32,000 nt of DNA from Pseudodesulfovibrio piezophilus C1TLV30 (GCF_000341895.1 NC_020409.1:2550001-2582000); one strand, 5' to 3'; counted from the first letter of the stretch, positions 3,233-19,547 are shown. The notes: a model not told the origin generated them from the sequence alone. A program made the numbers and translations.

Positions 3233-3234
3233 TG

Positions 3235-3549: not shown

Positions 3550-3583
3550 AGTTGATAGTCCTCCTGTTAAAGTGTTTTCAGGA

Positions 3584-3676
3584 GGATAACCCATGGTTTG
3601 GGAGCAGGGTGAGAACGGGCTTCAACGGGTGTGAACGGGCAGAAGAAGGGTGAAATCAGGTGTTGACAGGGTTTGT
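3584..3676 (-). promoter_or_regulatory. Conserved upstream regulatory module, copy A (head operon)
   Basis: Read on the plus strand, the module runs in this order:
- ggataacccatGGTTTG (GGTTTG at 3595-3600)
- GGGTGAGAACGGG (3607-3619)
- GGGTGTGAACGGG (3627-3639)
- GGGTGAAATCAGG (3648-3660)
- TGTTGACAGGGTTTGT (3661-3676)
It lies 35-127 nt upstream of the head-operon ATG at 3549. The architecture matches copies B and C. Confidence 0.6.
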
Positions 3677-3735
3677 CAGCTCCCCGGAAATGGCCGGAAC
3701 AGAGGAGAAAATGAGCGCATGAAGAGAAAGAGGAC

Positions 3736-3763
3736 TTGACGTTGTTTTTTTCGCGCGTATATT
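3736..3763 (+). promoter_or_regulatory. Sigma70-like promoter for the repeat-protein gene
   Basis: TTGACG (3736-3741), 16-nt spacer, TATATT (3758-3763). It lies ~75 nt upstream of the ATG at 3837. Confidence 0.55.
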
Positions 3764-3836
3764 AATTATATGCCAAATGACCCGGTAGGGTTTTTTTGCG
3801 GACCAGGGACGGTCGGCTTTGGCAGGGAGAAAGACA

Positions 3837-6023
3837 ATGTCTGCCCACGTTACCGATTTCATCATGGCCGGTCCTCCCGGTCATGTGACAGCAGGTCCCG
3901 CAGGGTCATTCAGGGCGAGCGATGCCGGTCGAGCCGTTATTGGCGAGCCGGGCTACGTGCCCATTGATACCACTCCGGCATATATTCCCATCGATACCAC
4001 TCTTCCAAGGATTCCCTATGCTCCGGGCATGGGAATTACCGTCACCGATTCTTCTGTGGGTGTTCATATCACAGGCGGGACCTCTGTAGGCGGTTTTGTG
4101 GAAGGCTCTACACAGGCTCCCATAGGCGGAGGTCATACATCGCCGACTCCGGTCAACGGAGGAGTGGTTAGTATGCCCAACTCCAGCAGTGCGAGTACTG
4201 CTACCGGTGTCGGCAGCACCGGGCTTGTGGGCGGGAATTCCGTTACCACGATCAATAATACGCAGGGTAATGTTTCCATAGGCGGGTCAACTTCCATTGT
4301 CGAATCTGGCAGGACCTCGGTGTCCCCGTCCGGCGGAAGCAGCTCCGGGACATTCGAGCGGGGTGGGTACAGTTCTCCTGAGGGGGGTGGACATGTTCCC
4401 ATTTCAACGGAGCACGGCAACGTTCCGGTTTCCCTTGCCGGTTCCGTTCCGATTACACCACATATCGGGTTCTCCATGCCGACTCTTTCCGGCATCACCC
4501 CCAGTACTCCCAGCGGGCGGGTGCAGGCTTTTCGTCACACAGCTCCGCACGGTTCGTATTTCGGACACACGCAACATTGGCCCAATGACGTCTTTCATCA
4601 CACTACGCATTCCTCCGGGTTTACACCCAAGTCCGTGCCACAGGCTCCATGGGTTCCCACTGTGGATGGCTATGAAGAGTCCAAGTTGCCGACGACTTCT
4701 TTTGATGATTCCATGGGACGTGGCAATCCCATTGACATGTCATCATCTTATTCCATGAATATCGATCAGACGCGGGATATCGATCAAAATCATCTGGTCA
4801 CCTACAACGAAACCGTGGACAGGGCGCTTGATCTTTCCATGAACTCCGTGGTGCAACGCAGCGATTCTGTTCTGAATCAGACTGATCTGGATAATTCTTC
4901 CACGACGAACCTGGATATGAGCACCACGCAGAACGTGGACAATGCCAATACGGTCAATCAAGTGACCAATCAGGATGCCATTTACAACACGACGCAGCAG
5001 AATGTGATGGAGCAGGATAATTCCAGAACCTTCAATAATACTGAAAATCGGGAATTGATCAACGAAAACCAGAATGTGCAGGTTCAGAATGTCGATGCGA
5101 CCCAGTCTGTCACGGAGAACAGGGTGGTTGATCAGAGCGTGTTGGACAATTCCACGGCCAACTATGTCAATCAGCGTGATGTCTCTGTCAGTTATGATAA
5201 TTCCGTGACCAGAGCCGAGGACCATTCCTCGTCCAATCAGGTTATCAATGAGAATACCTATAATGAAGTGGATAACTCCGTCAGCGAACAGAATACGTTG
5301 AGCCAAACAGTGCTTGAAAGCGAATATTCCTCCAATGTGTCCTTTAATGAGACGCATCTCAATCAGAACGACAACTCCACGGATATGGACACTGACATTG
5401 CGTTCGTCAGTCAGACCAATGACAACTCCACGGTCAATTATACATCGGATAATGACGTCAGCTTTGTGGAAAACAGGAACTTCAATGAAACTTCCACGGA
5501 AACCCATATCAACGAGAACGATAATTCGCGGGTTGTGGAACAGAGCACCAACTACAACTTCTCACAGAATGATAATTCCGTGACCAATATTGTGGATAAC
5601 AATTCCACAGTCATCAACGAAAACAGAGAGATGTCCGTCGAGTACAACACGTCTTCGGAAAATGTCTTCGATCAGTCTCGACACATAGATCAATCCACGG
5701 CGTTCAATTTCGTGGATCAGGACAACTCTGTCGTGCAATATGTCAATGACAACGACATAACCATGGTGGAGAACGATAACGTCACGCTGTCCTTCCCGGA
5801 AACACGTCTGCTTGAGATTGATAACTCAAATACAGTGGAAGTGAACAATACGTTCCAGAATCAGCACAATGACAATTCTCAGACCAATTATGTGGATGCG
5901 CGGGAAATGACGGTTCTTGATATCGATCAACCCAGCTACACTGTGGATCAATCAAGCAGCCTGGTCATGAATTTCCAGGCTCCGGAGCGGGCCGGCGGCG
6001 ATCTCATGGTCGGCAATGCCTGA
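3837..6023 (+). CDS. Low-complexity acidic Asn/Asp/Ser/Thr/Gln repeat protein, function unknown
   Basis: - The track ORF starts at a TTG (3819). The ATG at 3837 sits 6 nt after a GGGAGA RBS, giving 728 aa.
- I see no Sec signal peptide.
- The N-terminal third is Gly/Ser/Thr/Pro-rich, with a YVPIDTT/YIPIDTT tandem and a His-rich patch.
- The C-terminal ~430 aa contains about a dozen DNS tripeptides set in degenerate repeats.
- By my reading the protein has only 2 Lys and no Cys.
- The gene has its own promoter and a strong terminator. Confidence 0.8.
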   Translation: MSAHVTDFIMAGPPGHVTAGPAGSFRASDAGRAVIGEPGYVPIDTTPAYIPIDTTLPRIPYAPGMGITVTDSSVGVHITGGTSVGGFVEGSTQAPIGGGHTSPTPVNGGVVSMPNSSSASTATGVGSTGLVGGNSVTTINNTQGNVSIGGSTSIVESGRTSVSPSGGSSSGTFERGGYSSPEGGGHVPISTEHGNVPVSLAGSVPITPHIGFSMPTLSGITPSTPSGRVQAFRHTAPHGSYFGHTQHWPNDVFHHTTHSSGFTPKSVPQAPWVPTVDGYEESKLPTTSFDDSMGRGNPIDMSSSYSMNIDQTRDIDQNHLVTYNETVDRALDLSMNSVVQRSDSVLNQTDLDNSSTTNLDMSTTQNVDNANTVNQVTNQDAIYNTTQQNVMEQDNSRTFNNTENRELINENQNVQVQNVDATQSVTENRVVDQSVLDNSTANYVNQRDVSVSYDNSVTRAEDHSSSNQVINENTYNEVDNSVSEQNTLSQTVLESEYSSNVSFNETHLNQNDNSTDMDTDIAFVSQTNDNSTVNYTSDNDVSFVENRNFNETSTETHINENDNSRVVEQSTNYNFSQNDNSVTNIVDNNSTVINENREMSVEYNTSSENVFDQSRHIDQSTAFNFVDQDNSVVQYVNDNDITMVENDNVTLSFPETRLLEIDNSNTVEVNNTFQNQHNDNSQTNYVDAREMTVLDIDQPSYTVDQSSSLVMNFQAPERAGGDLMVGNA
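5349..5831 (+). repeat. Degenerate ~150-nt (50-aa) intragenic repeats
   Basis: The in-frame anchors ETHLNQNDNS (from 5349), ETHINENDNS (from 5499) and ETRLLEIDNS (from 5799) are spaced 150 and 300 nt apart. Related blocks (DNSTVNYTSDNDVSFVEN and DNSVVQYVNDNDITMVEN) recur between them. Confidence 0.6.
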
Positions 6024-6054
6024 TTCTTTGTAATTGAAAGCCCTTGAAATGCGG

Positions 6055-6083
6055 AGGACACCTGTCAATTCAGGTGTCCTTTT
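6055..6083 (+). terminator. Rho-independent terminator of the repeat-protein gene
   Basis: GGACACCTG (6055-6063), loop TCAATT, CAGGTGTCC (6070-6078), then TTTTT (6079-6083). It starts 32 nt after the stop codon. Confidence 0.85.
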
Positions 6084-6130
6084 TCATTCGCAGAGTCGAG
6101 ATGATCGTGCATTAATCCCGGCTTTCATCC

Positions 6131-6496
6131 TCAGGTTGGGTCAACGTCCATGGACATGGTCTGGAGGACGCACTGGTCAGTGAAACCGTAGATCCGGGCA
6201 AAACGGAAAAGATTGGGATTTAATCCCTCTGCATGACTGATGCGAATGCCGGTGATGCGTTTTTTCCCCAACCGTCTGCTTTCTTCTTTGAGCCAGTGAA
6301 CGTCGCCATGGATATTTCGCCTGATTTGTGGTCCCCATCGGATGAGTGAGACGTGGAGTTCCAGCGCGTCCTCATGTTCCCGAATGGCGGAATAGCCATA
6401 GGGCAAATCATTGTGATGCAGTTCGAGCCATCGGTAGTTTTCTTGTGTGAAATGAGCCAGTTCCCTGGGCTTTTTTTTCAGTTCACGAACGCTCAT
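6131..6496 (-). CDS. Hypothetical protein translationally coupled to TerL (faint GNAT-like C-terminal pattern)
   Basis: The track ORF 6131..6616 overlaps terL. The ATG at 6496 follows a GGAGG RBS and overlaps the terL stop by 14 nt, giving 121 aa. The segment RRLGKKRITGIRISHAEGLNPNLFRFARIYGF loosely resembles an acetyltransferase motif A/B region, which is weak evidence. Confidence 0.55.
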   Translation of the reverse strand: MSVRELKKKPRELAHFTQENYRWLELHHNDLPYGYSAIREHEDALELHVSLIRWGPQIRRNIHGDVHWLKEESRRLGKKRITGIRISHAEGLNPNLFRFARIYGFTDQCVLQTMSMDVDPT

Positions 6497-7769
6497 GGAG
6501 CCTCCCGAATGGATTGTATGTGTTTTCGGTTCTGGGTGGGCGTGGTCCTGCCCCCGGCTGCCGGAATCCGACGGCGAAATAGCGGAAGGCATCGACGGCA
6601 TGGCTGGTCCAATCATGAACCGGTCTCACGCCGAAATCATTCATGCGTTCGTTGAATGAGCGGCGGTAATGACGGAGGGACTCCAGCCCTGCTTCACACC
6701 GAGTCATGTCAAACCAGCAGGATGGCAGGAGGGTCCGGACGGCATTGATGCCATCCTGAATGGGGATATTCGGAGCGATGTCAAAGCGGATTCCCAGCCC
6801 TCGTGCCACTTCGAGTCGGGATTTTCCCGTGCCCAGTTCGCGGACGCGGATATCGTGGGGGGCTATATGGATGCCGTATTTATATGCCTTGTCATCAAGG
6901 ATTTTTGCATAATGATCCAGTCCTTCCCCACAGGCCTCATAATAATCAATGATCGCGTAGGTTCCTCCCGGTCGTGCCTGGACGAACCAGATGGATGTGG
7001 AGTCACTCATGCCGAGGTCCCAGGCTGTGTGAACAGGTAATGAGGGGTCGTGGGAGACCTCTGTGATACGGCCTTCCTTATCTGCTTCGCCCATAAGGTT
7101 GCCAAAGTACGCGCCGCGAATGGCTGCCGAGAATGAACATTCGAATTCTTGTTCGTATTCCTCCGGGGACATTTCCCTTGCGGCTGCGGCCAATTCGTCC
7201 TGGTCGATGATGTTGGTGTCCGATGCGCGGTACATGGCCGCAAACCAGCTCGGGTCGCGCCGGGCTTCTTCCCATATTTCGTATAAGGCGTTTTTCCCTC
7301 GGGGAGTGCCGATGAAGATTGCCCATCCCTTTCTATCTGAAAGGGCCGGGCGGATAACCTCGGTCCATATCCGTTTGGGCATCTGTGCCACTTCATCAAA
7401 AAGAACGCCGTCGAGATAAATTCCGCGCAGGGAATCCGGATTTTCAGCCCCGAAGAGGCGGATACGCGAACCATTTTTGAAATCTGCGCGAAGTTCTGTC
7501 TCGTGAAATTTTGCGAGACATTCTTCGGTCCCAACGCCGCAATATCGTTTGAGTTCATCCCAAACGACAGTCTTGGCCTGTTTATAGAGAGGGGCGATGT
7601 AAGCTCCGCGCCAATCCGGTCGGTCGGTTTCACTCGCTGCCCGGATGAGTTGGTTGATGGAGAGGGCGGTCTTGCCGAATCGTCGATGGCAGACCAACAC
7701 CGAAAATCGCGCCAGTCCGGTTTCGATTTCAGCCTGATGTTTTCGGGGGATATAAAGATTATGACTCAT
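6483..7769 (-). CDS. terL: Terminase large subunit
   Basis: 428 aa. Walker A is HRRFGKT. Walker B is LDGVLFDEV. Nuclease-type acidic motifs are present (HTAWDLGMSDSTSIWF, APHD, HDWTSHAVDAFRY). This is the typical TerL ATPase plus RNaseH-like nuclease layout. Confidence 0.9.
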   Translation of the reverse strand: MSHNLYIPRKHQAEIETGLARFSVLVCHRRFGKTALSINQLIRAASETDRPDWRGAYIAPLYKQAKTVVWDELKRYCGVGTEECLAKFHETELRADFKNGSRIRLFGAENPDSLRGIYLDGVLFDEVAQMPKRIWTEVIRPALSDRKGWAIFIGTPRGKNALYEIWEEARRDPSWFAAMYRASDTNIIDQDELAAAAREMSPEEYEQEFECSFSAAIRGAYFGNLMGEADKEGRITEVSHDPSLPVHTAWDLGMSDSTSIWFVQARPGGTYAIIDYYEACGEGLDHYAKILDDKAYKYGIHIAPHDIRVRELGTGKSRLEVARGLGIRFDIAPNIPIQDGINAVRTLLPSCWFDMTRCEAGLESLRHYRRSFNERMNDFGVRPVHDWTSHAVDAFRYFAVGFRQPGAGPRPPRTENTYNPFGRLHERS

Positions 7770-7823
7770 TGCTTAAAGATCCTTGTTGTTGACGGACACG
7801 ACCTGCGAGCGTATTTCCAAGCG

Positions 7824-8960
7824 ATGCGTCGTCTTGTCCTGATTCTTTTTTGTCTTCCCTTGTTGTTGATGGGATGTTTTGGTTCGCCCAGACCTCTGGG
7901 GACGAGTGCAGGGCTGACTGAGCAGGAAATCGCGCTGCAGCGGCGGGAAGCTTCGGCTTCTGATGCGCTGGCCAAAGCGCTTCAACTCTATCACAATGAA
8001 GAATTTCTTGATGTCGAAACAGCCAAGGAATACCTGGATCAGGCCATTCAGCTTGATCCGACTCTTGTGCCTGCGAGGCAGTATCGGGCCATGCTTCTGT
8101 TGGGTCAGAATCGATTGGATGAAGCTTTGATCGATGCCGAGGAAGTTCTGAAGGTAAAACCGGATCATACCAAAGCGCAATTTACAGTGGGCTTTATCCA
8201 GTACAACAAAGGTGAATACCGGGCCGCTATCAGGGCTTTTTCCAAGGTTGTGAAGCTGGATCGGAATATTTCCGAAGCGTATGCCCTGCGCGGAGCCTCC
8301 TACAGCCGCCTCGGACATTTTCAGGACGCCATCAAAGACTTCAGCCGGACACTCGCCATGAATCCCGCGCATAGGGAAGCGTACTACAACCGGGGTCTCG
8401 CCAATATGCAGCTGGGCAATCTCGTCCGCGCTATTTATGATCTGACCCAAGCTCTGACTCTCGATTCCCAATCCATTGAAACGTTGACGGCGCGGGCCGC
8501 TGCCTATAGCAAGCTCGGTCAGTTTGACAAGGCTGTGGAGGATTTTCAGAGGGCTGTCGATTTGGCTCCTTCTGACAATATGCTCCATGCTCTTCTTGCC
8601 GATACGCAAGCCTCGAATGGGAATTATGAGGCCGCAAAGCAGTCTGCGGACAAGGCCGCTCTGCTCGCTGAAGCTCTTGGCGATGACGAGCTTGTGCGAG
8701 TGTACAAAGGGATGGCTGCCGATTTTGCAGCCAAGGCTCTCTCGCCTCCTGTTTCGCCTCGCTCGAAAACAGGAATCCCCGATAAAAAGGGAGTCCCTGT
8801 TCCGGGACAATCCCTTCTCCCGACGGATGGAGTGAAGGGTAGCCCTGAAGCCTTGGCTGGGAACACATCTCGGAGAGCCATCCAGACGGATTCTGATGCC
8901 GTCTCCGCTGTGGGGTCGAAGTCGAAATTCCGGTCGGCTCCGGGAGCGGAAACGGATTGA
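7824..8960 (+). CDS. TPR-repeat lipoprotein
   Basis: The track ORF starts at 7503 and overlaps terL. The ATG at 7824 gives MRRLVLILFCLPLLLMGC, a signal peptide with an L-L-M-G-C lipobox. Multiple 34-aa TPR units follow (for example AYALRGASYSRLGHFQDAIKDFSRTLAMNPAHREAYYNRG). The C-terminus is Pro/Ser-rich. A TTGACG-17-TATTTC promoter lies at 7790-7818. Confidence 0.85.
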   Translation: MRRLVLILFCLPLLLMGCFGSPRPLGTSAGLTEQEIALQRREASASDALAKALQLYHNEEFLDVETAKEYLDQAIQLDPTLVPARQYRAMLLLGQNRLDEALIDAEEVLKVKPDHTKAQFTVGFIQYNKGEYRAAIRAFSKVVKLDRNISEAYALRGASYSRLGHFQDAIKDFSRTLAMNPAHREAYYNRGLANMQLGNLVRAIYDLTQALTLDSQSIETLTARAAAYSKLGQFDKAVEDFQRAVDLAPSDNMLHALLADTQASNGNYEAAKQSADKAALLAEALGDDELVRVYKGMAADFAAKALSPPVSPRSKTGIPDKKGVPVPGQSLLPTDGVKGSPEALAGNTSRRAIQTDSDAVSAVGSKSKFRSAPGAETD

Positions 8961-8964
8961 GGGA

Positions 8965-9177
8965 TTATTTGAGTATTTCATAAATGACCCTTGCACCGAC
9001 TCCGCCGACAGTGGCCATGCAGCCCCAGACCATCTTCTCCAATGTCGAAATCTTGACGTGATGACTGGCACACCTTCGGGCCAGATTGATTTCCCGGATG
9101 TCTTCCTGAATCGTCTTGACCCGTTCATCTATTCGGATCAGCAGGTCCTGCAGATCTTCCCTTTCCATAGCTGTCAT
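8965..9177 (-). CDS. Small coiled-coil protein with a C-terminal TM helix (XhlA-like architecture; lysis accessory?)
   Basis: 70 aa with an ATGA overlap onto the upstream holin-like gene. The N-terminus is a coiled coil (EREDLQDLLIRIDERVKTIQEDIREIN). The C-terminus is hydrophobic (MVWGCMATVGGVGARVIYEIL). Confidence 0.5.
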   Translation of the reverse strand: MTAMEREDLQDLLIRIDERVKTIQEDIREINLARRCASHHVKISTLEKMVWGCMATVGGVGARVIYEILK

Positions 9178-9581
9178 TTGGGTGCTCCGAAGGCGTCCTT
9201 GATTCCCCTGAGCGTGCTGGGCAGGTAATCGCCTATCTTTTTAACGCCCAGCACGGCTGCCACGATCCAGAAAGTGACCTGAAGAAACCAATCCGGTAGG
9301 TTCTCCCACGCGGCAATGACATGGGCGGCTTGTTCCGGGGCTACCCCGGACCATATGAAGAAGCCGATCCAGGCGAAGAACAGCACGTCGTCCTTCCAAC
9401 CCGCGTTTTCCAATTGTTTCATTTCCCATTCGTGGTTGAATTCCTGATCGCTTTTTGCCAGGCGCATGCGATTTTCCATGACAGTCTGTTTCAACACCTG
9501 TTTTTGTTTCATGTGGCCGGTAATACCTTCCACGACAGTGGTCAGCAGTCCGGCCACGGCTCCGATGATTGGTATGGGCAT
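9174..9581 (-). CDS. Putative holin (architecture resembles the 3TM / GTA-type holin family)
   Basis: 135 aa with an AAGGAGA RBS. The N-terminus is hydrophobic (PIPIIGAVAGLLTTVV). An amphipathic, charged helix follows. Two TM segments come last (VLFFAWIGFFIWSGV and WFLQVTFWIVAAVLGV). The family assignment comes from architecture and memory only. Confidence 0.5.
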   Translation of the reverse strand: MPIPIIGAVAGLLTTVVEGITGHMKQKQVLKQTVMENRMRLAKSDQEFNHEWEMKQLENAGWKDDVLFFAWIGFFIWSGVAPEQAAHVIAAWENLPDWFLQVTFWIVAAVLGVKKIGDYLPSTLRGIKDAFGAPK

Positions 9582-9616
9582 GGCGTCTCTCCTTGTTTTT
9601 CCTCAAGCACGCCGCA

Positions 9617-9709
9617 GTGTATCCCCGGTTTTTGGGCCAGGACACCAGCGGGTGTAGAAGGGATGAAATGGGGTGAAAACGGATGAAAAAAGACGGTTGA
9701 CACGGATTG
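9617..9709 (-). promoter_or_regulatory. Conserved upstream regulatory module, copy C (lysis-like operon)
   Basis: Read on the plus strand, the module runs in this order:
- gtgtatccccGGTTTT (GGTTTT at 9627-9632)
- GGGTGTAGAAGGG (9650-9662)
- GGGATGAAATGGG (9660-9672)
- GGGTGAAAACGG (9671-9682)
- GGATGAAAAAAG (9681-9692)
- GGTTGACACGGATTG (9695-9709)
The repeats are phased ~10 nt apart. The module lies 36-128 nt upstream of the ATG at 9581. Confidence 0.55.
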
Positions 9710-9732
9710 CCTCAAAGGGTGATGTCTCCTTC

Positions 9733-10767
9733 ATGCAAACCACGGAACCATCTCTTGCGACCAGACTGTCCGAGCCGTTGAATATCGGTGGAAAAAAGGT
9801 TGCCAATCGTCTCTGGCTAGCCCCCATGGCCGGACTGGGGCATGTGGCCTATCGTGAAGTTCTGGAAGAGTATGGTGGGTGTGGATTGATGTTCACGGAG
9901 ATGTGCTCGGCCAAGGCTGTGCCCATGGAAAATCGGCGTGTCTCTCCTGTTTTTCGCTGGCGGGACGAAGAACTCCCCAAGCTGGTTTGTCAGATCGTGG
10001 GAGCGACTCCGGATGAGATGATTCCGGCCGCACGGCGTGTGGAAGCAGAGGGCTTTTTCGGTATTGATATCAACATGGGATGTTCGGTTCCGGGGATCGT
10101 CAAGCGTCATGCGGGAGCCGCTCTGCTCAAGTCTCCTGAGAAAGCTCTCGCTGTGATTGAAGCTGTCCGCACCGCAGTGACCCTGCCTCTTTTCGTCAAG
10201 TTCAGGACTGGCTGGATCCCGGATATTCGTCCAGCAGTCGCCCTTGCCAGACAGTTCGAATCAGCCGGAGTGGACTGCCTTGTTTTTCATCCTCGTGTGG
10301 CTCCGGATAAGCGGACCCGCCCAGCCGTTCTCGACCATATCCGTTCGATCAAGGATGCTGTATCGATCCCGGTTATTGGCAATGGAGACGTCGTTACGAG
10401 GGAGGAATGCGCCCATATGCTTGAATCGACCGGATGTGACGGTATCTCCGTCGGACGCATGGCCATGGCCAGGCCATGGCTTTTTGCCGAATGGACTCGC
10501 GGCTATCAGCCTTCTGAAGCAGAGTTCGGTCAGTATGCCATTCGGTTGGCCGATGCCCTGGAAGCTCGGTATGATCCTGTCAGGGCTTTGAAACGTTACA
10601 AATTATTTACCGTTTATTTTGCAGCGAATTTTACCTTTGGTCACAGTCTGCAATCAAAATTCCTGGCAGCCAAGTCCATGGCTCAGATACGGGCGGTTGC
10701 CCGACAGCATGTCCGACCCGACATGCAATTATCCGGCAGACCGAACATGAATCTTTACAACACGTAG
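9733..10767 (+). CDS. dus: tRNA-dihydrouridine synthase (Dus family)
   Basis: Dus-family motifs are present: LAPMAGLGHVAYREV, GLMFTEM, GIDINMGCSVP, VKFRTGW and IPVIGNGDV. The track start GTG at 9673 runs through the repeat array. The ATG at 9733 gives a typical Dus N-terminus. Confidence 0.9.
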   Translation: MQTTEPSLATRLSEPLNIGGKKVANRLWLAPMAGLGHVAYREVLEEYGGCGLMFTEMCSAKAVPMENRRVSPVFRWRDEELPKLVCQIVGATPDEMIPAARRVEAEGFFGIDINMGCSVPGIVKRHAGAALLKSPEKALAVIEAVRTAVTLPLFVKFRTGWIPDIRPAVALARQFESAGVDCLVFHPRVAPDKRTRPAVLDHIRSIKDAVSIPVIGNGDVVTREECAHMLESTGCDGISVGRMAMARPWLFAEWTRGYQPSEAEFGQYAIRLADALEARYDPVRALKRYKLFTVYFAANFTFGHSLQSKFLAAKSMAQIRAVARQHVRPDMQLSGRPNMNLYNT

Positions 10768-10776
10768 GAGAGGCTC

Positions 10777-11412: not shown

Positions 11413-11512
11413 TCTCACAAGTTCGAGCCTTCATGATTCAGCCATGTTTGTGTGTTCAAAAATGTATAGACCTCAGGAGGCTGCGAGAATAGGTTTGCCT
11501 GGGAGAGATGTC

Positions 11513-12397: not shown

Positions 12398-12515
12398 CTC
12401 TCTTGAAGCATGGTGGCGATCTTGATGCTCCTTGAGACGACAGGGCGGGTGTTTTTGGTTCAGGAAAAACTATTGACGAATATTTTCCACCTCGTGGTGG
12501 AGTGAGGAGAGTCTC

Positions 12516-12725
12516 ATGGAAGAGCGCGTTGAACGTCTGGAAAATCTGGTAACGCTCCAGGAAAGAACGATTGAGAAATTAAGTGATGCTGTTTTCGAAC
12601 AACACCAGCAGATAGCAACTCTGGAAAAAATGGTGGAACGGCTCGCTGGGAAGTTGCGTGATATTGACGCGGCGTTGGATGATTCCGGGATAGCTGATGT
12701 CCCACCTCCGCATTACAACGGGTAG
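12516..12725 (+). CDS. slyX: SlyX-family protein
   Basis: 69-aa coiled coil, ERVERLENLVTLQERTIEKLSDAVFEQHQQIATLEKMVERL, ending in VPPPHY. This is the typical SlyX layout. Confidence 0.85.
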   Translation: MEERVERLENLVTLQERTIEKLSDAVFEQHQQIATLEKMVERLAGKLRDIDAALDDSGIADVPPPHYNG

Positions 12726-12740
12726 TGTTCGATCACTGTA

Positions 12741-12792
12741 TGAATTCTATATAATTATTTGTTTTATCAAAATAAAATATTTTTAATATAAT
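12741..12792 (+). promoter_or_regulatory. AT-rich island with an orphan sigma70-like promoter
   Basis: Only 4 G/C in 52 nt. TTATCA (12764-12769), 17-nt spacer, perfect TATAAT (12787-12792). A second TATAAT lies at 12750-12755. The island sits between two convergent 3' ends, so no annotated gene lies downstream. Confidence 0.35.
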
Positions 12793-12957
12793 CGGTACCC
12801 AGGGGACACCCTCTTTTGTCTTCTTGATTGATACCTGTTTTCGAATGCCCCAGTTGGGGGTACTGTCGTTGAGAATCTAAAAATGAGCACATGATATCCA
12901 CAGCACAAATGGTTCTTCATGTTCGTGCGTCCCGAGATATTATTTTTTTTTCAGAAA

Positions 12958-12987
12958 AAGAGGCGCCTTCTCATGAAAGCGCCTCTT
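12958..12987 (-). terminator. Rho-independent terminator of the tail module
   Basis: AAGAGGCGC (12958-12966) pairs with GCGCCTCTT (12979-12987). On the minus strand the stem is followed by TTTTTCTG and a further A/T run. It begins 3 nt after the chaperone stop. Confidence 0.7.
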
Positions 12988-12989
12988 GA

Positions 12990-13427
12990 CTATTCTGTCT
13001 CAGGTTGTTCCGGCCATTCTATGAAAGAGGGAAATCCTTCCTGTTGGGGGATATCTCTCAATGCCTGCCTGTAGCTTTGCCATAGAACCATGGCTTCTGT
13101 GTCCAAGCACGAATCGACCAGTTGGGTCCAATCTGACTGTGCCAGCAATCTGTCCCTTTTTTTGCGCGTCAATACGGCTTTATCTGCTGATTGAGCCTCT
13201 TCATCTGTGGTCGTGGCAAGAATTTCTTCCCGGTAGATGAGGTCTTCCCCTTTGACCCATCTCGTTTGATAGGTGGTGTAGGGTTTTCGCGTAATCGGAA
13301 AAGCCTCGTTGTATCCGGCCTCATCCCATTCCGTCCGATTCAGGTCACCGAATCGGCGAGTGTATCCTCGGAAAGTGACCACGGCAGGTGGTGTTGTTTT
13401 GAAGTGTCCATCGTGATAGCGAAACAT
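12990..13427 (-). CDS. Tail fibre assembly chaperone
   Basis: The ATG at 13427 follows a GGAG RBS (the track ORF starts at 13508), giving 145 aa. The C-terminal segment KRDRLLAQSDWTQLVDSCLDTEAMVLWQSYRQALRDIPQQEGFPSFIEWPEQP matches the conserved tail-fibre-chaperone C-terminus (SDW...W..YRQ.LRD.P...GFP..I.WP). Confidence 0.7.
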   Translation of the reverse strand: MFRYHDGHFKTTPPAVVTFRGYTRRFGDLNRTEWDEAGYNEAFPITRKPYTTYQTRWVKGEDLIYREEILATTTDEEAQSADKAVLTRKKRDRLLAQSDWTQLVDSCLDTEAMVLWQSYRQALRDIPQQEGFPSFIEWPEQPETE

Positions 13428-13440
13428 ATTAATCTCCTTT

Positions 13441-15738
13441 TTAAAATGCGTTGCTGTATTTGGTTGATTCGAGCATGGCAAGGCCGACCATAAGGTTCCC
13501 TTCGCCATTGACCTGAGGATTGGTGCCGGTGATTTTTATGCCCTGACTGGAAAAGAGTGTTGAAATGTTGCTTTCCGTTGTCTCAACATCGGTCGAGTCA
13601 GGGAGAAGATAACTCGCAACAATATTTTTTTCATTTCTTGCAGAGTCGAAAAGGAAGTGGTGTCCAACCTCATCTGTGTTCTTTAATGCAAACAGTGCCC
13701 GTGGTTTGCCTCCCAAATGGACAAATGGACCATCTTCAGAGCCGTTGCCGACGTAGCTGAAAGCTTGGAAAATCGCAGAATCGGCAAAAAGATAGGCCAT
13801 ATGTTTTTGGCCGAGACCATTGACTCCAGGGTTACTTCCAACGGTGAAATGAGTGCTTGTGGGTGGAGTGTCATTCCAGATATCGCTTTTTTCTTGAGCG
13901 TTTTCCGTAGAATTGAGGAGGAGGTGTTTTTTTTCACCCAGAGCCGAATGGTAGAGTGCCCATCCCAGAGTGCCCGTTTCAAGATTTTTGACGATCATGA
14001 AAGAGGGAGGCGCTTGGAGTGCATGGGAGATATCTCTGCCGGAGGAGCCGTCACCTGTGTATTCGATCAGTTCAAATCCTTGATACGGAGCGGATTTGAG
14101 GCAGAGATCAAGAAAGGAGTTACCTGACTTGTTAATGAAGCTTGCATACCCTAAGTTGTAGCCGTCATCATTGAAAGCGGTGAGCGAATCCGTAAAGTAT
14201 GATTGGGCGGATGAAGAGTTGGTCCTGAGGTATTTGGTTGTTCCTTGGCACCGATCGAATAATCCCCAGGAATCAACAGCCCATCTGCCTTTGATGTAGA
14301 CAAAATCAGGGGCGAATTCCAATGAAGACACGGTTGTGTCGCCGCCCGTGCCGATCCGAGTCGTGATATCGAAGACTGTCGAAGATCGAAGCAGGGTAGG
14401 CTCGGGATTGGTCTTGATACACAGCGGTTTGAATCCTGTCGGAGGAGAGAAAGCAAAGATTGTTCCGCCGGAGTTCAAGGTGATTTTCTGGTCCATTGCC
14501 CCGGTGGTCACGAATGGGAGTACTCTCTGTGGCAAGCCAGTTATCATCGGGTTTACATGGTTTATCGGGTCTCCATCCTCCAACCATGAACCATTGCGCC
14601 CTATCCACATGTTATTTCCTTTGAGGGCGAATTGGAAAATGTCACCAGCTGAAAAAAATGGTGGATTCACCCATTCCGAAAACACTCCATCGGCATAATA
14701 CCCTGCCGCATCACACGAAAAATGTCCGGCCTTGTTTGCCATGTTGGTCGAAGGGCACCGGGATTCAATGGCTCCCATTGAAAGAGAAGCCGTTGAAGCA
14801 AGTGTCTCAAGGGTGCATTCCCAATATAATCCGCGCTCTGTTGCCATGGGAATGTCACCCATGGCCATGGTAAAAGAATCGTTGTTTGAAGAAATAGTTC
14901 TGTTTCCATTGGAAAAAATCAATTCATTTGTCCTGTCTAGGGAAAGGAGTCTGTTGAACGTACAATGATTGTTTGTCGGGGTATCTCCGCATTGTGCGGG
15001 ATCTCCGATTACCGTCCAGTGGTTTTCCTGTGCACTGTCATGACCGAGATTGGCTGCATCTGAAAATCGCAGATGAAAACCATTTTGCCCCAGAGTGAGA
15101 TCTTTTGATTTTCGGGGAATCCACAGCCCGGTTATAATGGATGAGTATTCTCCGAACTGATGTATGCCCTGGGGTATTCCATCCACAAAAATTATATCTG
15201 AAGCGTAGCCGTTAATCGGTGTCGTTATTAAGTGAAGTTTTCTTCCTATGTACATCTGGTAATTGATGTCGTTAACTGATGTCACTGTGTTCTGAGCGGC
15301 CATTGTGCTCGTTTCCAGTGGTACCAGGCGGTTCCCGTTGTAATAGACTCTGACTCTGTCAAGGGCGGCAGGTGCCGTTGTGTCCACCATGACTGCAAGA
15401 TGGTACCATGCGGTGGGGTCGGAAAAGACGTTCCAATCAAAAGAATATTTGAAAAGGGTGGTTCCGGCTGAGTTCGCTTGAAAAACAGAGAATTGGTTGT
15501 CATTGAGGAATATATGGAAACGAGGTTTCAAACTTGCGCTACCTGCCGTAAAGAAGCAGTGCCCAGCCGCTTCGCATGTCGTTCCCTTGAACCATCCGCT
15601 GAAGGTAAAGGTTTGCGTATTGCCTGTGGTTTGAGGAGTCCGGGCAAGATACTGTCCTGTGGATAAAAGTGCCGAATGTGACAATTCTCTTGGAAAAACA
15701 GGGATTATTTCATGATTATGTTCTTTCGGAGTGAGCAT
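13441..15738 (-). CDS. Putative distal tail fibre / receptor-binding protein with LamG-like and SPRY-like jelly-roll domains
   Basis: The ATG at 15738 sits after GGAGGCGTAAC (the track ORF starts at 15849 and overlaps the upstream gene), giving 765 aa. A LamG/concanavalin-like pattern is present (FTFSGWFKG...WYHLAVMVD...VRVYYNGNRLV). A SPRY-like pattern is present (GLYWECTLE...GDIFQFALKGNNMWIGRNGSW). Confidence 0.65.
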   Translation of the reverse strand: MLTPKEHNHEIIPVFPRELSHSALLSTGQYLARTPQTTGNTQTFTFSGWFKGTTCEAAGHCFFTAGSASLKPRFHIFLNDNQFSVFQANSAGTTLFKYSFDWNVFSDPTAWYHLAVMVDTTAPAALDRVRVYYNGNRLVPLETSTMAAQNTVTSVNDINYQMYIGRKLHLITTPINGYASDIIFVDGIPQGIHQFGEYSSIITGLWIPRKSKDLTLGQNGFHLRFSDAANLGHDSAQENHWTVIGDPAQCGDTPTNNHCTFNRLLSLDRTNELIFSNGNRTISSNNDSFTMAMGDIPMATERGLYWECTLETLASTASLSMGAIESRCPSTNMANKAGHFSCDAAGYYADGVFSEWVNPPFFSAGDIFQFALKGNNMWIGRNGSWLEDGDPINHVNPMITGLPQRVLPFVTTGAMDQKITLNSGGTIFAFSPPTGFKPLCIKTNPEPTLLRSSTVFDITTRIGTGGDTTVSSLEFAPDFVYIKGRWAVDSWGLFDRCQGTTKYLRTNSSSAQSYFTDSLTAFNDDGYNLGYASFINKSGNSFLDLCLKSAPYQGFELIEYTGDGSSGRDISHALQAPPSFMIVKNLETGTLGWALYHSALGEKKHLLLNSTENAQEKSDIWNDTPPTSTHFTVGSNPGVNGLGQKHMAYLFADSAIFQAFSYVGNGSEDGPFVHLGGKPRALFALKNTDEVGHHFLFDSARNEKNIVASYLLPDSTDVETTESNISTLFSSQGIKITGTNPQVNGEGNLMVGLAMLESTKYSNAF

Positions 15739-15739
15739 G

Positions 15740-16732
15740 TTACGCCTCCATGTTCTGCACCGAAAGGATGCTTTTTCGGTTATTGTATTGTTCAACAACA
15801 ATTCTGATTTCCTCAGCACTTGTGCTCGGCAACGGTAGCTTTCCGTCATTGTTGTAGCTTTCAGCGAGGTTCAAGGTATAGCCGGCAGGGTAGACATGGA
15901 AAATATAGGTTCCATCAAAAGGTAAAAGAACGTCGCTGAAGAAGCTTGGAGCTTCCAGAGTCCAGAGGATATGATTGCGTTCCACTTCCAGGGTGAGGAG
16001 ATCGACCCCTGAATAAAGTTGGGCTTCGTCGCCGAAAACCGTTTGTAGGATATCCGGGATATCTGCTTTGAGAATGGTGGTATCAGCAGGTTCAGCATCA
16101 AGAAGAGCCAGAGCGTCGAGGGAGGATTGGGCTGTTGCCATAGCCCGACCTGTTGCGCCAAAACCAAGATTACTGAGCGCCTCTTCGATATCCCTGCCCC
16201 CTGTACCTCCTTCACCGATCGAGAGCGGGATTCCGACCATACCTATATCTCCGGCCTGCTTGTTGATCAGGTTGTCACCGGATTCATTCCACGCGATAAG
16301 ACGCCCGGGGTCTGGTTCAGGCAGTTCAACACCACTCACGGCAGATGAAACACGAAAGGTGATCGTTCGATCCAATCGTTCGGAAAGTGTCTGGCAGATC
16401 ATCGTCAGTTTATCCAGAGCCGCTTCATGTGTGGCTGCGGGAAAGGCGTCGTTTTCTACATAATCAACTTCCTGGACAATGGACGGGTTGCGTCTGATGA
16501 CAAGATGTTCTCCTTTTGCCGGAGCCGAAGTCATGGTGCAGATCCCGCCTGTATGATGTCCAGCCCCGGAAAGTTGATAATCTGTACTGATGGTTTGAAC
16601 TGTTTCGGTGTCCGGAGATGATAGGACGACTTCGAGATCATTATTTTCGAGGAAGAGAAAAGGCACTGCAAACAGTGTTGTTGAGCCATTCCCCATATAT
16701 ATGACCCGTGATTGGGTGGATGAGATTGTCAT
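15740..16732 (-). CDS. Tail fibre protein with a T7 gp17-like N-terminal (tail-attachment) domain
   Basis: 330 aa with an AGGAG RBS. The N-terminus is VIYMGNGSTTLFAVPFLFLENNDLEVVL...TDYQL...GEHLVIRRNPSIVQEVDYVENDAFPAATHEAALDKL. It parallels T7 gp17 (LTYQLDGSNRDFNIPFEYL...TDYRF...IELRRVT...DFTDGSILRAYDLN). Confidence 0.75.
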   Translation of the reverse strand: MTISSTQSRVIYMGNGSTTLFAVPFLFLENNDLEVVLSSPDTETVQTISTDYQLSGAGHHTGGICTMTSAPAKGEHLVIRRNPSIVQEVDYVENDAFPAATHEAALDKLTMICQTLSERLDRTITFRVSSAVSGVELPEPDPGRLIAWNESGDNLINKQAGDIGMVGIPLSIGEGGTGGRDIEEALSNLGFGATGRAMATAQSSLDALALLDAEPADTTILKADIPDILQTVFGDEAQLYSGVDLLTLEVERNHILWTLEAPSFFSDVLLPFDGTYIFHVYPAGYTLNLAESYNNDGKLPLPSTSAEEIRIVVEQYNNRKSILSVQNMEA

Positions 16733-16735
16733 GGT

Positions 16736-17212
16736 TTATCTCCTTGAGTTGTAAATGGTTGATCCCAGGGAAAGAGTGGAAGAAGGCGTCTTTAGGTCGT
16801 TGTTGATGCGGAACATATTTGCTTCACGGCGTCCTTGTTTCAGGGTCTTTTGTGCTGCATGTTCTCCTTCAAAGAGCAAGTCTTCTTCCTTTTGTCTGTC
16901 CTGGAGTTTGTCTGAGTCCCTGATCAATTGTTTCGAACCGCTCATGGCCAGATTGGATTGTCCCCATTTCGTGTTTTTACGGCTTCTGTTCTCTTCAAGT
17001 TCCTCACGGGACTGGGTGGCTTGACCCCGAGCTTGTCTTCGCTGGTCACTGGCCGTTCCTGCGGCGTTCAACTCCATTAATTTCGCTTGCTCCTCGGCCA
17101 TTTTTGAAGGGTCTGCCGATTCAGAACTCGACCCCATGAATTTATCTGTGAGTTTATCGAACATGGTGACCCCCTGTTCAAATTGGTCCATTGCCTGTTG
17201 GTCGATACCCAT
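16736..17212 (-). CDS. Hypothetical charged phage protein (possible internal/assembly protein)
   Basis: 158 aa with an AGGAG RBS. It lies between the nozzle and fibre genes. It is rich in Gln/Arg/Glu and looks like a coiled coil. Confidence 0.55.
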   Translation of the reverse strand: MGIDQQAMDQFEQGVTMFDKLTDKFMGSSSESADPSKMAEEQAKLMELNAAGTASDQRRQARGQATQSREELEENRSRKNTKWGQSNLAMSGSKQLIRDSDKLQDRQKEEDLLFEGEHAAQKTLKQGRREANMFRINNDLKTPSSTLSLGSTIYNSRR

Positions 17213-17239
17213 GGTGTACTCCTTTGTTGTAGTCTGTTG

Positions 17240-19336
17240 TTATTCGTTGGTAATTGAGGTGGGGACAATGAGGAGGATGGTCATGGGCAAGGGTTGCTCC
17301 TGAGTAACGGTCAGAAGACCTTCCCGTGTCCATCCCTTGGGGAAAGTGATGGATTTATCGCCGGAGAAAGCACCGACAGATTGATCCATGGGAATTGCCG
17401 ATGACCGGAAATTCAAGGATTCAAGCTTGTTTGCGCTCGGGCCGATCTTACCCCCCAGAGTCTCGTGAAATCGAACGGAGACTTTGGTGATTCGTTGCCG
17501 TTTTGTCTGGGTCGTTCCGCGTTGGCTTCCGCCTTCAAGTCGCATGGGTTGAACCGAGGAGACATAAGGAAGCCCCGCGTGAACCGTGGACGAAGGGCGA
17601 TCAAGTGTAATGGCTCCGGTATCAGAAACCACCTTGTCCGTTTGTACAGAGCCATCAGCCAAGACTGTCACTGTCCTTCCGGCCAAATGGTCCAGTCCTG
17701 TCAGTTCCGTGATACTTTCGCCTGAGTAGCTCAATCCGCTGTCAACGAAGAAGGCCTCTTCGATCACGCCGGAAAAGCCTTTTTCCAAATATTCAATGTA
17801 GCGCCTGACCTCTCCCTGCACTTCTCGCCGGACAACCACCCACAGCTCGTCTCGTTTGCTGATATCGCTGTATATGGACGTCACCCCTTCCACGACACCA
17901 TCGGTCTCGTGTCGGGACCATGCCGCGACATCCTGAGAAGGATCGTATGTCAAGGCCGCAAGAAGGCCGTCATTGCGGACGCAATACAGAACTGCATCCG
18001 GCTCTTGCACAAAGGCAAGTTGGGTGACGCCAGTCTCAGTGATATGTTCTGACAGGAGGCTCAAGTCTTTGGAAACATAGGCATCAGATTCAAACCGATA
18101 TGCCATTTCTCGAATCTTTCGGCCCGATCGCTGGATGAAAAGAGTCGCGAATCCGACTGATTCCGGTCTGGATCGGGCGGCACCGCAGGTGCCTTCATGA
18201 TTGGCTTTGACATTCTCCGGAGAGAGCGCTTCACTGCTTGCGCCTGAGACCGTCCATTCTCCACCTGCGGTTCCGATCCACAATCGACTTCGAGGAACCA
18301 TGAACTCTATAGCATTGGCCTGCCGCCCGGAAAGCGTGACTTCGATTCCATCGTCACTCAGGGGCGAGTCGCCTGCCTGGGCGTCGGTTCTTTCTCCAAC
18401 CTCGAAGGAGTCCCAATATTGTTCATTGAGCACTCCATCAGACGTCCATATCGGCTCAATGGTGTTTGCGGCAGTTGAATCCTTGAAGGTAATGGTCTCG
18501 TTATCGCCGGATGCCACAAAGCTTTTCGTTCCCTTGTATCGATAGTAACGAGTGATACCGTCGCAGTCCTGGCCTTTGATACCATCCTTGTTTTCGAATC
18601 CGTCTCCGTCCAATAGAGTGAAGGTGTCGCCGCTTTGGCCATTGCGAACGCCATCCGAGTTGGAGTCGAGAATTTCCCGGTCTCGCCATCCATCCAAAGG
18701 GACTTCGCGCGTCTTGAGACGAAAATCCGTCATTTCTCCGGTGCGGGAAAACCAAAGCGTGCCGGGTTCATTCGGGGTCGCGGCCAGAACAAGTCGTTGC
18801 TCAAAGAAACAGACCGCCGAGGGGTAATTCTCTGGTCCCCAGACCTCGGGTTGGCCCATGAATTCCAGCTCTTCCAATGCCCAGTCATCATGGTCGAGGC
18901 GGGTCATCTTGCGAACAGGGTGCGAAGGGTGGATCAGGATCAGAATATCCGCAGTCTGAGCAAAACGCAGATCTTCAAGTTCTTCGGCTTTATATGGAAT
19001 ATCGCGGAGATATTCTTCTCCATCCGAAAGGACGACGCCATGGTCGGCAAAAACACGCATCCTACCCTGACCCGAATCCTCTTCGCCGAATTCGAGCACA
19101 TACGTTTGCGCCCCGTTGAACTCGAAGGGAATAAGCAAGGTCGGTTTGTTTTGACTGATCGCCTGTGCCACAAAACGGAAGCCGGATCTTCGAGTGATGC
19201 CTCCGTGAGGGTGGATATGAAAGTTTTTCAGCTTCCGGCATCCATTATAGTATTTAGAGAGGTCAGTTCGCCCTTCAAGCCGGGGGCTCATCTCTCCGGC
19301 TGTGAAATTGGTCAGTGACGGTGTGGAAATACTCAT
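17240..19336 (-). CDS. Tail tubular protein B / nozzle (T7 gp12-like)
   Basis: 698 aa with an AGGAGA RBS 8 nt upstream. The N-terminus (FTAGEMSPRLEGRTDLSKYYNGCRKLKNFHIHPHGGITRRSGFRFV) and the C-terminus (ITKVSVRF...LTVTQEQPLPMTILLIVP) follow the conserved ends of gp12-like nozzle proteins (T7: GGISQQPD...; ...SDETTPLNIIGCGWEG). Confidence 0.7.
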   Translation of the reverse strand: MSISTPSLTNFTAGEMSPRLEGRTDLSKYYNGCRKLKNFHIHPHGGITRRSGFRFVAQAISQNKPTLLIPFEFNGAQTYVLEFGEEDSGQGRMRVFADHGVVLSDGEEYLRDIPYKAEELEDLRFAQTADILILIHPSHPVRKMTRLDHDDWALEELEFMGQPEVWGPENYPSAVCFFEQRLVLAATPNEPGTLWFSRTGEMTDFRLKTREVPLDGWRDREILDSNSDGVRNGQSGDTFTLLDGDGFENKDGIKGQDCDGITRYYRYKGTKSFVASGDNETITFKDSTAANTIEPIWTSDGVLNEQYWDSFEVGERTDAQAGDSPLSDDGIEVTLSGRQANAIEFMVPRSRLWIGTAGGEWTVSGASSEALSPENVKANHEGTCGAARSRPESVGFATLFIQRSGRKIREMAYRFESDAYVSKDLSLLSEHITETGVTQLAFVQEPDAVLYCVRNDGLLAALTYDPSQDVAAWSRHETDGVVEGVTSIYSDISKRDELWVVVRREVQGEVRRYIEYLEKGFSGVIEEAFFVDSGLSYSGESITELTGLDHLAGRTVTVLADGSVQTDKVVSDTGAITLDRPSSTVHAGLPYVSSVQPMRLEGGSQRGTTQTKRQRITKVSVRFHETLGGKIGPSANKLESLNFRSSAIPMDQSVGAFSGDKSITFPKGWTREGLLTVTQEQPLPMTILLIVPTSITNE

Positions 19337-19385
19337 GTCGCATGTCTCCTCTTTGTTCTCCTGGACGGTTCGGGTATGCGACAGA

Positions 19386-19478
19386 GGCTATCACCGGTTT
19401 GTGCGGCAGGATGAAAAAGGGTGTGAGCGGGCGTGAGCGGGTTCTACAGGGATGACATTCCCTGTTGACAGGGTTTGT
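19386..19478 (-). promoter_or_regulatory. Conserved upstream regulatory module, copy B (tail operon)
   Basis: Read on the plus strand, the module runs in this order:
- ggctatcaccGGTTTG (GGTTTG at 19396-19401)
- GGATGAAAAAGGG (19409-19421)
- GGGTGTGAGCGGG (19419-19431)
- GGGCGTGAGCGGG (19429-19441)
- GGGATGACATTCC (19449-19461)
- TGTTGACAGGGTTTGT (19463-19478)
The last element is identical over 16 nt to 3661-3676. G-triplets recur every 10 nt. The module lies 50-142 nt upstream of the ATG at 19336. Confidence 0.6.
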
Positions 19479-19496: not shown

Positions 19497-19547
19497 GCAA
19501 AAAACACCAGTGCCCACCCTTCGGAGTCATCCGAAGAGTGGGCACTG
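19497..19547 (-). terminator. Rho-independent terminator of the TPR-pfkB operon
   Basis: A 19-bp stem spans 19508-19547 (CAGTGCCCAC.CTTCGGA, loop GTCA, TCCGAAG.GTGGGCACTG) with one mismatch. On the minus strand it is followed by GTGTTTTTTGC. It insulates tail-module copy B from upstream transcription. Confidence 0.85.

Follow-up and report, generated by a model that had tools for sequence, protein, structure and literature searches.

A stretch of 32,000 nucleotides (nt) of the Pseudodesulfovibrio piezophilus C1TLV30 chromosome (NC_020409.1:2550001-2582000, the whole of which is referred to here as the window) raises a simple question: why are three separate groups of phage-like genes, interspersed with host genes, each preceded by the same array of short, helically phased repeats? 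An earlier note, made from the sequence alone, proposed that these arrays, here called A, C and B in their order along the window, bind a dedicated regulator that controls the gene groups together, and mentioned terminase recognition repeats as a less likely alternative. The comparative data described below strongly support the idea of a shared cis-regulatory array that co-regulates the phage-like modules, the same architecture being found before every module type, in many genera and nowhere else in the DNA that was scanned. On balance, we consider each array to be, more likely than not, a copy of one activator-dependent promoter region of the phage-late type. Its presence before every piece of a scattered podovirus-like set marks those pieces as what appears to be a single co-regulated system. 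Full-text literature searches found no published account of such a dispersed set in the Desulfovibrionaceae or of its promoter.

Three homologous arrays and their distribution

The three arrays align almost without gaps across ~100 columns (MAFFT), with 62/93, 56/93 and 56/93 identical positions in pairwise comparisons of the 93-nt core. An nhmmer model built from two copies recovered the third with E values of 1.1e-9 (A), 2.4e-9 (B) and 3.7e-6 (C), all other matches in the window having E > 1, and a model of all three copies found no fourth in the 32 kb. A, B and C are homologous, and their resemblance is far beyond chance. The top Fourier period of the dinucleotide CC is 10-11 nt in each, equalled by 0.6-2.2% of shuffled sequences, and T-tract and A/T phasing is significant in A and C, that of B not reaching significance. 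The distance from the distal TGTCAA box to a -10-like hexamer is 86 nt in A, 86 nt in B and 87 nt in C, and the first start codons (3549, 9581 and 19336), each with a ribosome-binding site (RBS) before it, lie 32-45 nt 3' of the hexamers.

Much of the earlier description withstands this closer reading. Inspection of the sequence bore out the positions of the copies and their single orientation, A and B are indeed identical over the 16-mer TGTTGACAGGGTTTGT, and the helical phasing, judged by the Fourier analysis against shuffles, is real in all three. The -10-like hexamers are present, but their exact frame shifts by one or two nt, to TATCCT, TACACT and TAGCCT, a frame that is preferred because T, A and final T are then invariant in 43 related arrays. 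Other details required correction. Units ~20 nt apart had been described in copy A, which has five units at 10-11 nt, as do B and C; the start codons had been placed 35-140 nt from the arrays, against the 32-45 nt measured here; and the terminator beside B, assigned to an opposite-strand operon, is a minus-strand hairpin that ends the PfkB operon on the same strand. Because this hairpin ends the host operon upstream, it insulates array B against read-through, and B must supply a promoter of its own. From the lack of a plus-strand gene beside B it had also been argued that the distal box is not just the -35 element of a divergent sigma-70 promoter. We rejected a divergent promoter starting from the box (read as TTGACA) since no conserved -10 follows it and many arrays have no divergent gene.

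The loci compared were portal loci from metagenomes, capsid loci from genomes and several named genomes; a profile was trained on 24 arrays 5' of head modules and then run over the remaining loci. In 606 kb of Desulfovibrionaceae loci there were 48 matches at E < 0.01, and all 48 are followed, within 900 nt and in the same orientation, by a podovirus-like gene (head, scaffold, capsid, gp11, tail or lysis/terminase). The same layout recurs 5' of the head module in relatives that keep the genes, namely P. indicus, S. onnuriiensis, P. cashew, P. sediminis and ~20 metagenomic relatives. Among the matches listed, 12 of the 14 capsid loci from Desulfovibrionaceae have an array 120-250 nt 5' of the gene; another stands before a separate gp11-like gene in L019, and L037, a contig of a metagenome-assembled genome (MAG), has four, before its head, scaffold, capsid and gp11 genes. 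The profile had no match in 1.2 Mb of alphaproteobacterial loci with a related capsid gene and none before host genes in the 0.6 Mb of Desulfovibrionaceae DNA, so that the array is not a generic intergenic repeat. Both checks that could be made on sequence, for conservation and for restriction to the modules, therefore favour the finding within the loci covered.

Some further observations concern the same loci. The head module of L037 has an extra, weaker array inside it (4311-4393), between the portal and Bbp19/scaffold genes, from which it follows that modules can gain internal promoter copies. The capsid locus of P. piezophilus itself was not among the matches listed in a capsid-alignment search of genome contigs. 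The same capsid family, at 52-57% identity, is widespread in alphaproteobacterial chromosomal contigs among the matches listed (L047-L112), its carriers there including Rhodospirillaceae, Ca. Enterousia, Oleispirillum and Roseospira, and OY764545.1 holds two copies (L048 and L049).

Anatomy of the proposed promoter and its phage origin

The anatomy of the array was described from 43 distinct related examples, read on the gene strand. The order of parts is a CCTGTCAA(G/C) box, four or five units, a AAAACCGGGG(C) spacer box, the hexamer TAnnCT, a short leader, an RBS and the start codon. Measured between the first base of TGTCAA and the last of the hexamer, only two sets of distances occur, 77/78 nt (29 arrays, four units) and 86/87 nt (14 arrays, five units, A, B and C included), and the two classes therefore differ by one unit, or about one helical turn. 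The CCTGTCAA box is almost invariant, lies near -90 and is frequently inside a short palindrome, as in B (Table 1). Each unit comprises 10-11 nt, a T-tract followed by a G/C-rich part with a CC end (TTTCACCC / TTTCATCC in the window), and together the units span ~-35 to -80. The first ends 21 nt past the start of TGTCAA in both length classes; the last, (T)CATCC(T/G)G, occupies the -35 position, 16-17 nt 5' of the hexamer. In the spacer box, at ~-23 to -14, two C's are conserved at 74% and 93% and the three G's nearest the hexamer at 84-95%. The hexamer keeps its T, A and final T in 100% of the arrays and its C at position 5 in 93%; on sequence grounds, this combination of an invariant T, A and final T around a variable middle is what characterises a sigma-70-type -10 element. 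Neither strand of the three window arrays yielded a -35/-10 pair.

Over the arrays as a whole, A/T content has a period of 10.5-11 nt with six times the power of shuffled sequence, and only ~13 positions are near-invariant. Identity between arrays of one genome (0.51-0.74) is about that between the window arrays and their best matches in other genomes (0.48-0.66), which points to old copies under common constraint. By eye, neither an IHF site nor a LexA box fits, and a sigma-54 promoter was rejected, the consensus CCtGgCCCcAAAACCGGGGCTAT being without GC at -12 and a TGGC-like -24 element occurring in some arrays only. There is no Rfam match in the window.

Two phage contigs, L115 (the same as L013) and L116, both with RepO, contain exactly one array each, of the 87-nt class. 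Their gene order runs from RepO and VRR-NUC to a small winged-helix-turn-helix (wHTH) gene, whose product has 66-71 amino acids (aa), and then the array, followed in one contiguous late operon by DUF5675, holin (scored in L115 only, not L116), a small membrane protein, TerS-like, TerL, portal, scaffold, capsid, gp11 and gp12. Because these related phages hold a single array before the late operon, sequence comparison shows a phage late promoter to be the ancestor of the P. piezophilus arrays. When viral contigs were scanned for the DNA pattern, the boxes recurred with unchanged spacing in L185, L188 and L187/L189, whose late genes are unrelated to the podovirus set, and L135, found via its terminase, has the same pairing of small gene and array. 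In 6/6 independent phage contigs (L115, L116, L135, L185, L188 and L189) the small gene ends 5-125 nt 5' of the TGTCAA box. The units are near-exact repeats within an array, reading ACCGGATTTA in L116, 6 x GCTCAAAnAn in L188 and TTTTTnnGTC in L185; their sequence differs from phage to phage, whereas the TGTCAA box, spacer box and hexamer are common to all. Tandem repeats of 11 nt are also found at 5368-5431 of L116, in a RepO-matching region, and at 2197-2244 of L135, in the corresponding upstream region (where there is no RepO annotation). They have the look of origin iterons such as those of lambda ori, and are not part of the late-promoter arrays.

The ancestral phage would, on this evidence, have possessed one such promoter, right after a small winged-helix (excisionase/Cox-like) gene and before a lysis-head-tail operon. 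In the Desulfovibrionaceae the operon would then have been broken into pieces scattered among host genes, each piece keeping or acquiring a copy of the promoter, with the consequence that the whole podovirus-like set could still switch on together.

Proposed control of the promoter and its alternatives

A promoter with a sigma-70-type -10 but no -35 element needs help. From the architecture described above we infer promoter activity, activation rather than repression, and the nature of the protein that binds. Host RNA polymerase with a sigma-70-type factor would use TAnnCT as its -10, the units and the distal box being putative binding sites of a dedicated DNA-binding regulator. This protein would oligomerise along the phased repeats on one face of the helix, aided by intrinsic curvature. 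Covering the repeats from the -35 position to ~-80, together with the distal box at a stereospecific distance, it would recruit or stabilise polymerase at the -35-less promoter. Because the units are identical within an array but lineage-specific, and a small winged-helix gene is their constant neighbour in phages, the sequences are suggestive of a Cox/Apl/Xis-like protein, polymerising along repeats spaced by one turn. Arrays of the excisionase/Cox/Apl type have at least three direct repeats one helical turn apart, and the chromosomal arrays have four or five. P2 Cox polymerises on repeats with this spacing and activates the P4 late promoter in doing so (PMC3936717, PMC7498355).

The phage small proteins, of 66-88 aa, align as one family. 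Two of its members match phrog_66 ('excisionase and transcriptional regulator'); for three there is a weak match to Pfam HTH_17 that stays under the curated cut-off. The small wHTH protein has three database relatives only, all on phage-like contigs. Its single-sequence structure model is poor (pLDDT 61), a PDB sequence search with it gave nothing meaningful, and no ring-forming N-terminal part is evident in the phage small proteins. In the window itself, the zinc-ribbon-like open reading frame (ORF) of 85 aa upstream of array B (Table 1) is a weak candidate for the regulator because small zinc-finger late activators, such as P2 Ogr, exist; no family matches it significantly, and none of the loci compared contains a relative.

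A number of points weigh against a dedicated activator. The profile and the distance measurements were seeded by a regular expression that required TGTCAA and TAnnnT; later, untrained matches still contained both, and the capsid, gp11, scaffold and named-genome arrays, which were outside the training set, all carry them. Conservation of the arrays in other chromosomes covers those of head, capsid, scaffold and gp11 genes only: viral-contig scans with gp12, TerL and orf135, aimed at orthologues of B and C, returned distant phages only, and in P. cashew the terminase module begins just past the end of the compared locus. No homologue of the phage small wHTH protein was found in the window or in any of the chromosomal loci examined, so that in the chromosome the factor may have diverged or may be encoded by the host. 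Lineages differ widely in their unit sequence, and units could act chiefly via curvature. Finally, so conserved a spacer box is not what one expects of a simple activated promoter, and it would suit a site for antiterminator loading or an operator equally well.

The most serious of the alternatives takes up the matter of curvature, and we regard it as unlikely. The phased T-tracts would form an intrinsic bend or UP-like element in a curved-DNA promoter that has no dedicated regulator; polymerase alpha subunits, or a general host factor at the TGTCAA box, would stimulate transcription, with timing derived from global physiology. Such a promoter would account for the A/T-tract periodicity, which is the sole unit feature common to all lineages, and fits the failure to find a regulator gene in the chromosomal loci examined. 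That the TGTCAA and spacer boxes are kept across phages with unrelated late genes and divergent small proteins would also be in keeping with host machinery. A bend does not, however, require units that are near-identical within an array, as they are in L188 and L116 and in the CA(C/T)CC ends of the window, nor a small DNA-binding gene beside the array in all six phage contigs, and a specific switch would be expected for lethal particle and lysis genes.

The spacer box is also the place at which an antiterminator of the Q/AlpA/GafZ type might load, at AAAACCGGGG between -35 and -10, the upstream part serving an accompanying activator. In place of the activator model this is distinctly improbable, but antiterminator loading is compatible with that model and the two can coexist. 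In the lambda map Q directly precedes late promoter and lysis genes, and the small gene of the phages has the same genome position. The spacer box, among the best conserved parts of the array, lies where AlpA has its binding element (-25 to -20, PMC9371919) and where the gene transfer agent (GTA) of Caulobacter has its GafZ element (PMC11150451). Against this, the leaders are of 32-45 nt only with no terminator inside, no conserved -10-like pause element was noticed downstream (no formal search was made), and the phage proteins are far smaller than Q or AlpA.

We give still less weight to a repressor or silencer array, on which a protein would polymerise over the repeats and core promoter and keep the modules off until de-repression, as P2 Cox does at Pc. 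Cox- and Apl-type proteins do repress by means of filaments on one-turn direct repeats (PMC3936717, PMC7498355), and the core promoter shares sequence with the last unit and with the spacer box. Yet repression alone does not explain the architecture, because a -35-less promoter should be weak unaided, and the strict classes of box-to-hexamer distance point to a stereospecific contact with polymerase.

What is left has almost no claim to belief. Small-terminase binding sites typically show phased repeats and bent DNA, and the L189 array comes directly after a large-terminase gene, but terminase recognition (pac/cos-like) repeats, the earlier note's own alternative, or replication iterons would not be expected as three copies within 16 kb in the window and four on L037, each oriented like the genes that follow it and at a constant distance from its -10-like hexamer, RBS and start codon, and phage origin iterons sit elsewhere, inside repO. 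A promoter for a phage-type single-subunit (T7-like) RNA polymerase, a generic intergenic repeat or a G-quadruplex is equally hard to credit: although the structural genes have T7-family Pfam matches, AAAACCGGGGCTATA by eye loosely resembles the T7 promoter layout (AT-rich, specificity region, TATA) and GGG runs recur at 7-nt spacing on the plus strand of all three arrays, the nearest cultured phages are of the HTVC010P type, which are not known to encode an RNA polymerase of their own, the annotated parts of L115 and L116 showed no polymerase gene, the invariant positions are exactly the T, A and final T of a sigma-70 -10 with a variable middle, no copies lie outside modules in the scanned loci, and in most other lineages, L185, L188 and the L018 type among them, the GGG phasing is missing.

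The dispersed modules, a possible gene transfer agent and known parallels

The minus-strand operons that follow the arrays are, by sequence similarity, pieces of an HTVC010P/T7-like podovirus structural set (Table 1); by portal, the nearest cultured phages are HTVC010P-type pelagiphage podoviruses at 44-45% identity. The portal of the window matches the NCBI protein from P. piezophilus with full identity. Between the modules lie host genes (Dus, cyclase, EamA, SlyX and PfkB), and no integrase or replication genes were found in the window. The same four-gene head module stands 3' of an array in L001, L003, L006, L008, L014, L027, L190-L192 and others, and homologues of the holin-like orf135 lie behind the DUF5675 gene in phage contigs L193 and L195.

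Table 1. Array components, podovirus-like modules and other features of the window, numbered from its first nucleotide.
Feature	Position	Strand	Remarks
Array A	3583-3676	minus	head-module promoter region
Array A, -10-like hexamer	3583-3588	minus	TATCCT
Array A, spacer box	3589-3602	minus	CCAAACCATGGG
Array A, five units	~3603-3657	minus	10-11 nt, CCC ends
Array A, distal box	3663-3668	minus	TGTCAA, flanks to 3676
Array C	9616-9709	minus	lysis/terminase-module promoter region
Array C, -10-like hexamer	9616-9621	minus	TACACT
Array C, spacer box	9622-9635	minus	
Array C, five units	between spacer and distal boxes	minus	TCATCC / TCACCC type
Array C, distal box	9697-9702	minus	TGTCAA
Array B	19385-19478	minus	tail-module promoter region
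Array B, -10-like hexamer	19385-19390	minus	TAGCCT
Array B, spacer box	19391-19404	minus	
Array B, five units	between spacer and distal boxes	minus	
Array B, distal box	19465-19470	minus	within palindrome CCCTGTCAACAGGG
Head module	389-3549	minus	four genes
Small protein	3235-3549	minus	head module
Portal	1442-3238	minus	head module
Bbp19-like small protein	1086-1445	minus	head module
Scaffold/protease-like protein	389-1228	minus	head module
Lysis/terminase module	6131-9581	minus	five genes
Holin-like orf135	9174-9581	minus	lysis/terminase module
Small membrane protein	~8965-9264	minus	lysis/terminase module
orf451	7773-9128	minus	lysis/terminase module
Large terminase	6483-7769	minus	lysis/terminase module
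orf161	6131-6616	minus	lysis/terminase module
Tail module	12990-19336	minus	
gp12-like tail tube protein B	17240-19336	minus	tail module
orf158		minus	tail module
T7-fibre-N protein	15740-16732	minus	tail module
DUF7483 fibre	13441-15849	minus	tail module
Tail assembly chaperone	12990-13508	minus	tail module
Intrinsic terminator	19498-19547	minus	3' of host operon (PfkB + 85-aa ORF); 18-pair stem (19547-19508), then T-run
85-aa ORF	19577-19831	minus	two CxxC pairs, zinc-ribbon-like; between PfkB gene and terminator, 5' of array B
734-aa protein gene	3819-6023	plus	divergent from array A; no family match

Several neighbouring features deserve mention. The small protein encoded at 8965-9264 (-) is C-terminally hydrophobic and homologous to the product of the gene 3' of the holin in phage L115. 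The similarity extends 5' beyond the first ATG/GTG/TTG in the ORF as listed and covers the orf451 start as annotated, and the start codons of both genes are therefore uncertain. The large terminase of L003 (S. onnuriiensis CP040751) is apparently split into two overlapping ORFs (833-2088 and 785-875), upstream of which is a shortened array-like stretch (CGTCAA-34 nt-TATGTT); this terminase module may be decaying. A protein of 1150-1382 aa with FecR/HemolysinCabind domains is encoded in L003 (2544-5996), L190 (3022-6714) and L191 (2792-6940). Its gene lies 3' of the terminase module in L003 and L190 and has no counterpart in the P. piezophilus window; in L191, where no terminase was seen at that place, it lies between a very large ORF and the gene for a homologue of the 734-aa protein.

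The 734-aa protein gene has a canonical sigma-70 promoter of its own, TTGACG-16-TATATT (3736-3763, +), not an array. Its product is rich in N, D, S and T, of low complexity and internally repetitive, with a 27-nt tandem repeat in the gene at window positions 3948-4001. The first ~70 residues are 55-73% identical in proteins encoded beside head or capsid modules in L003, L006, L008, L037, L113, L190 and L191, and in L016 a gene 5 kb 3' of the portal gene encodes this N terminus at 38% identity. The 734-aa protein probably belongs to the particle system as one more component, though not one under array control.

In gene content the window corresponds to a GTA, with dispersed structural, packaging and lysis genes but none for replication or integration. 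Portal identity is 57-82% across Pseudodesulfovibrio, Salidesulfovibrio, Paucidesulfovibrio, Humidesulfovibrio and related MAGs, and capsid identity among the matches listed is 63-94% over the same Desulfovibrionaceae genera and MAGs; the ratio of non-synonymous to synonymous substitution (dN/dS) of the portal is ~0.1, with dS saturated, and the modules lie in differing host contexts among genomes. These sequence features speak for an element that has been domesticated and passed on vertically, and against a prophage in decay, and the module set is possibly GTA-like on gene content and conservation. It is conceivable, and we put it forward tentatively, that the arrays constitute the regulon of an undescribed, vertically inherited, podovirus-derived GTA common to Desulfovibrionaceae, which may underlie particles of the Dd1 type. 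Dd1 particles are podovirus-like and contain ~13.6 kb of DNA. The sole GTA reported from Desulfovibrio, Dd1 of D. desulfuricans has been cursorily characterised (PMC11841831), and GTAs outside the Alphaproteobacteria have barely been characterised at all.

If such a GTA exists, its late operon was shattered into at least five modules, each with the same late promoter, a single regulator polymerising on helically phased repeats would switch on all of them, and in the genome of any member of the family the array profile would find every component, the regulator and the lysis genes included. A recognisable array is also a sequence handle with which to list the parts of the system, pull down its regulator and build reporters of particle timing in sulfate reducers. 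The evolutionary picture would be one of domesticated late-operon fragments that each travel with a copy of the late promoter, and of a way of building late promoters, with a distal box, phased repeats and a spacer box but no -35, that several otherwise unrelated temperate phages have in common.

The nearest functional parallel to the arrays is the PgtaT promoter of Caulobacter crescentus, with its GafY element, IHF site and GafZ element (PMC11150451). The arrays, too, appear to drive domesticated phage structural genes and share with PgtaT a tripartite plan of distal activator element ~90-120 nt upstream, bent DNA and a conserved element in the -35/-10 spacer. There is no sequence similarity between them, however, the bend of the arrays comes from phased repeats with no recognisable IHF site, and the arrays are copied before many dispersed modules whereas PgtaT heads one 14-kb cluster. 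The window set, known here from its genes, is of podovirus type, unlike the siphovirus-like GTA of Caulobacter.

In their repeats, the arrays resemble the P2 Cox boxes, the 186 Apl sites and the X1-X1.5-X2 sites of lambda Xis, all with 4-6 one-turn direct repeats over ~50-70 nt beside a promoter; the phage gene adjacent to the array likewise encodes what its sequence places in the 'excisionase and transcriptional regulator' family, and Cox also activates the P4 PLL promoter (PMC3936717, PMC7498355). Unlike Cox and Apl sites, the arrays add TGTCAA and spacer boxes at a fixed distance from a -10 hexamer, and, in a further difference from the Cox, Apl and Xis systems, no such small protein was found in the P. 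piezophilus window. The order of L115 and L116, in which a small regulator gene and a promoter precede lysis and morphogenesis genes, recalls lambdoid late control (Q and PR') and AlpA/PalpB, as does the conserved element in the promoter spacer (PMC9371919, PMC7969949). The arrays differ in having no promoter-proximal terminator and a much smaller protein, and PR' and PalpB are without a long upstream repeat array. Tandem OmpR/PhoB-type sites (ompF F1-F2-F3) and phi29 p4 at the late promoter A3 activate promoters in which the -35 element is poor or missing. With these the arrays share phased sites at ~-40 to -100 and curved upstream DNA, a functional analogy only, as the proteins and motifs are unrelated. 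The arrays of P. piezophilus and its relatives extend a known type of control region, that of the activator-dependent phage-late or GTA promoters.

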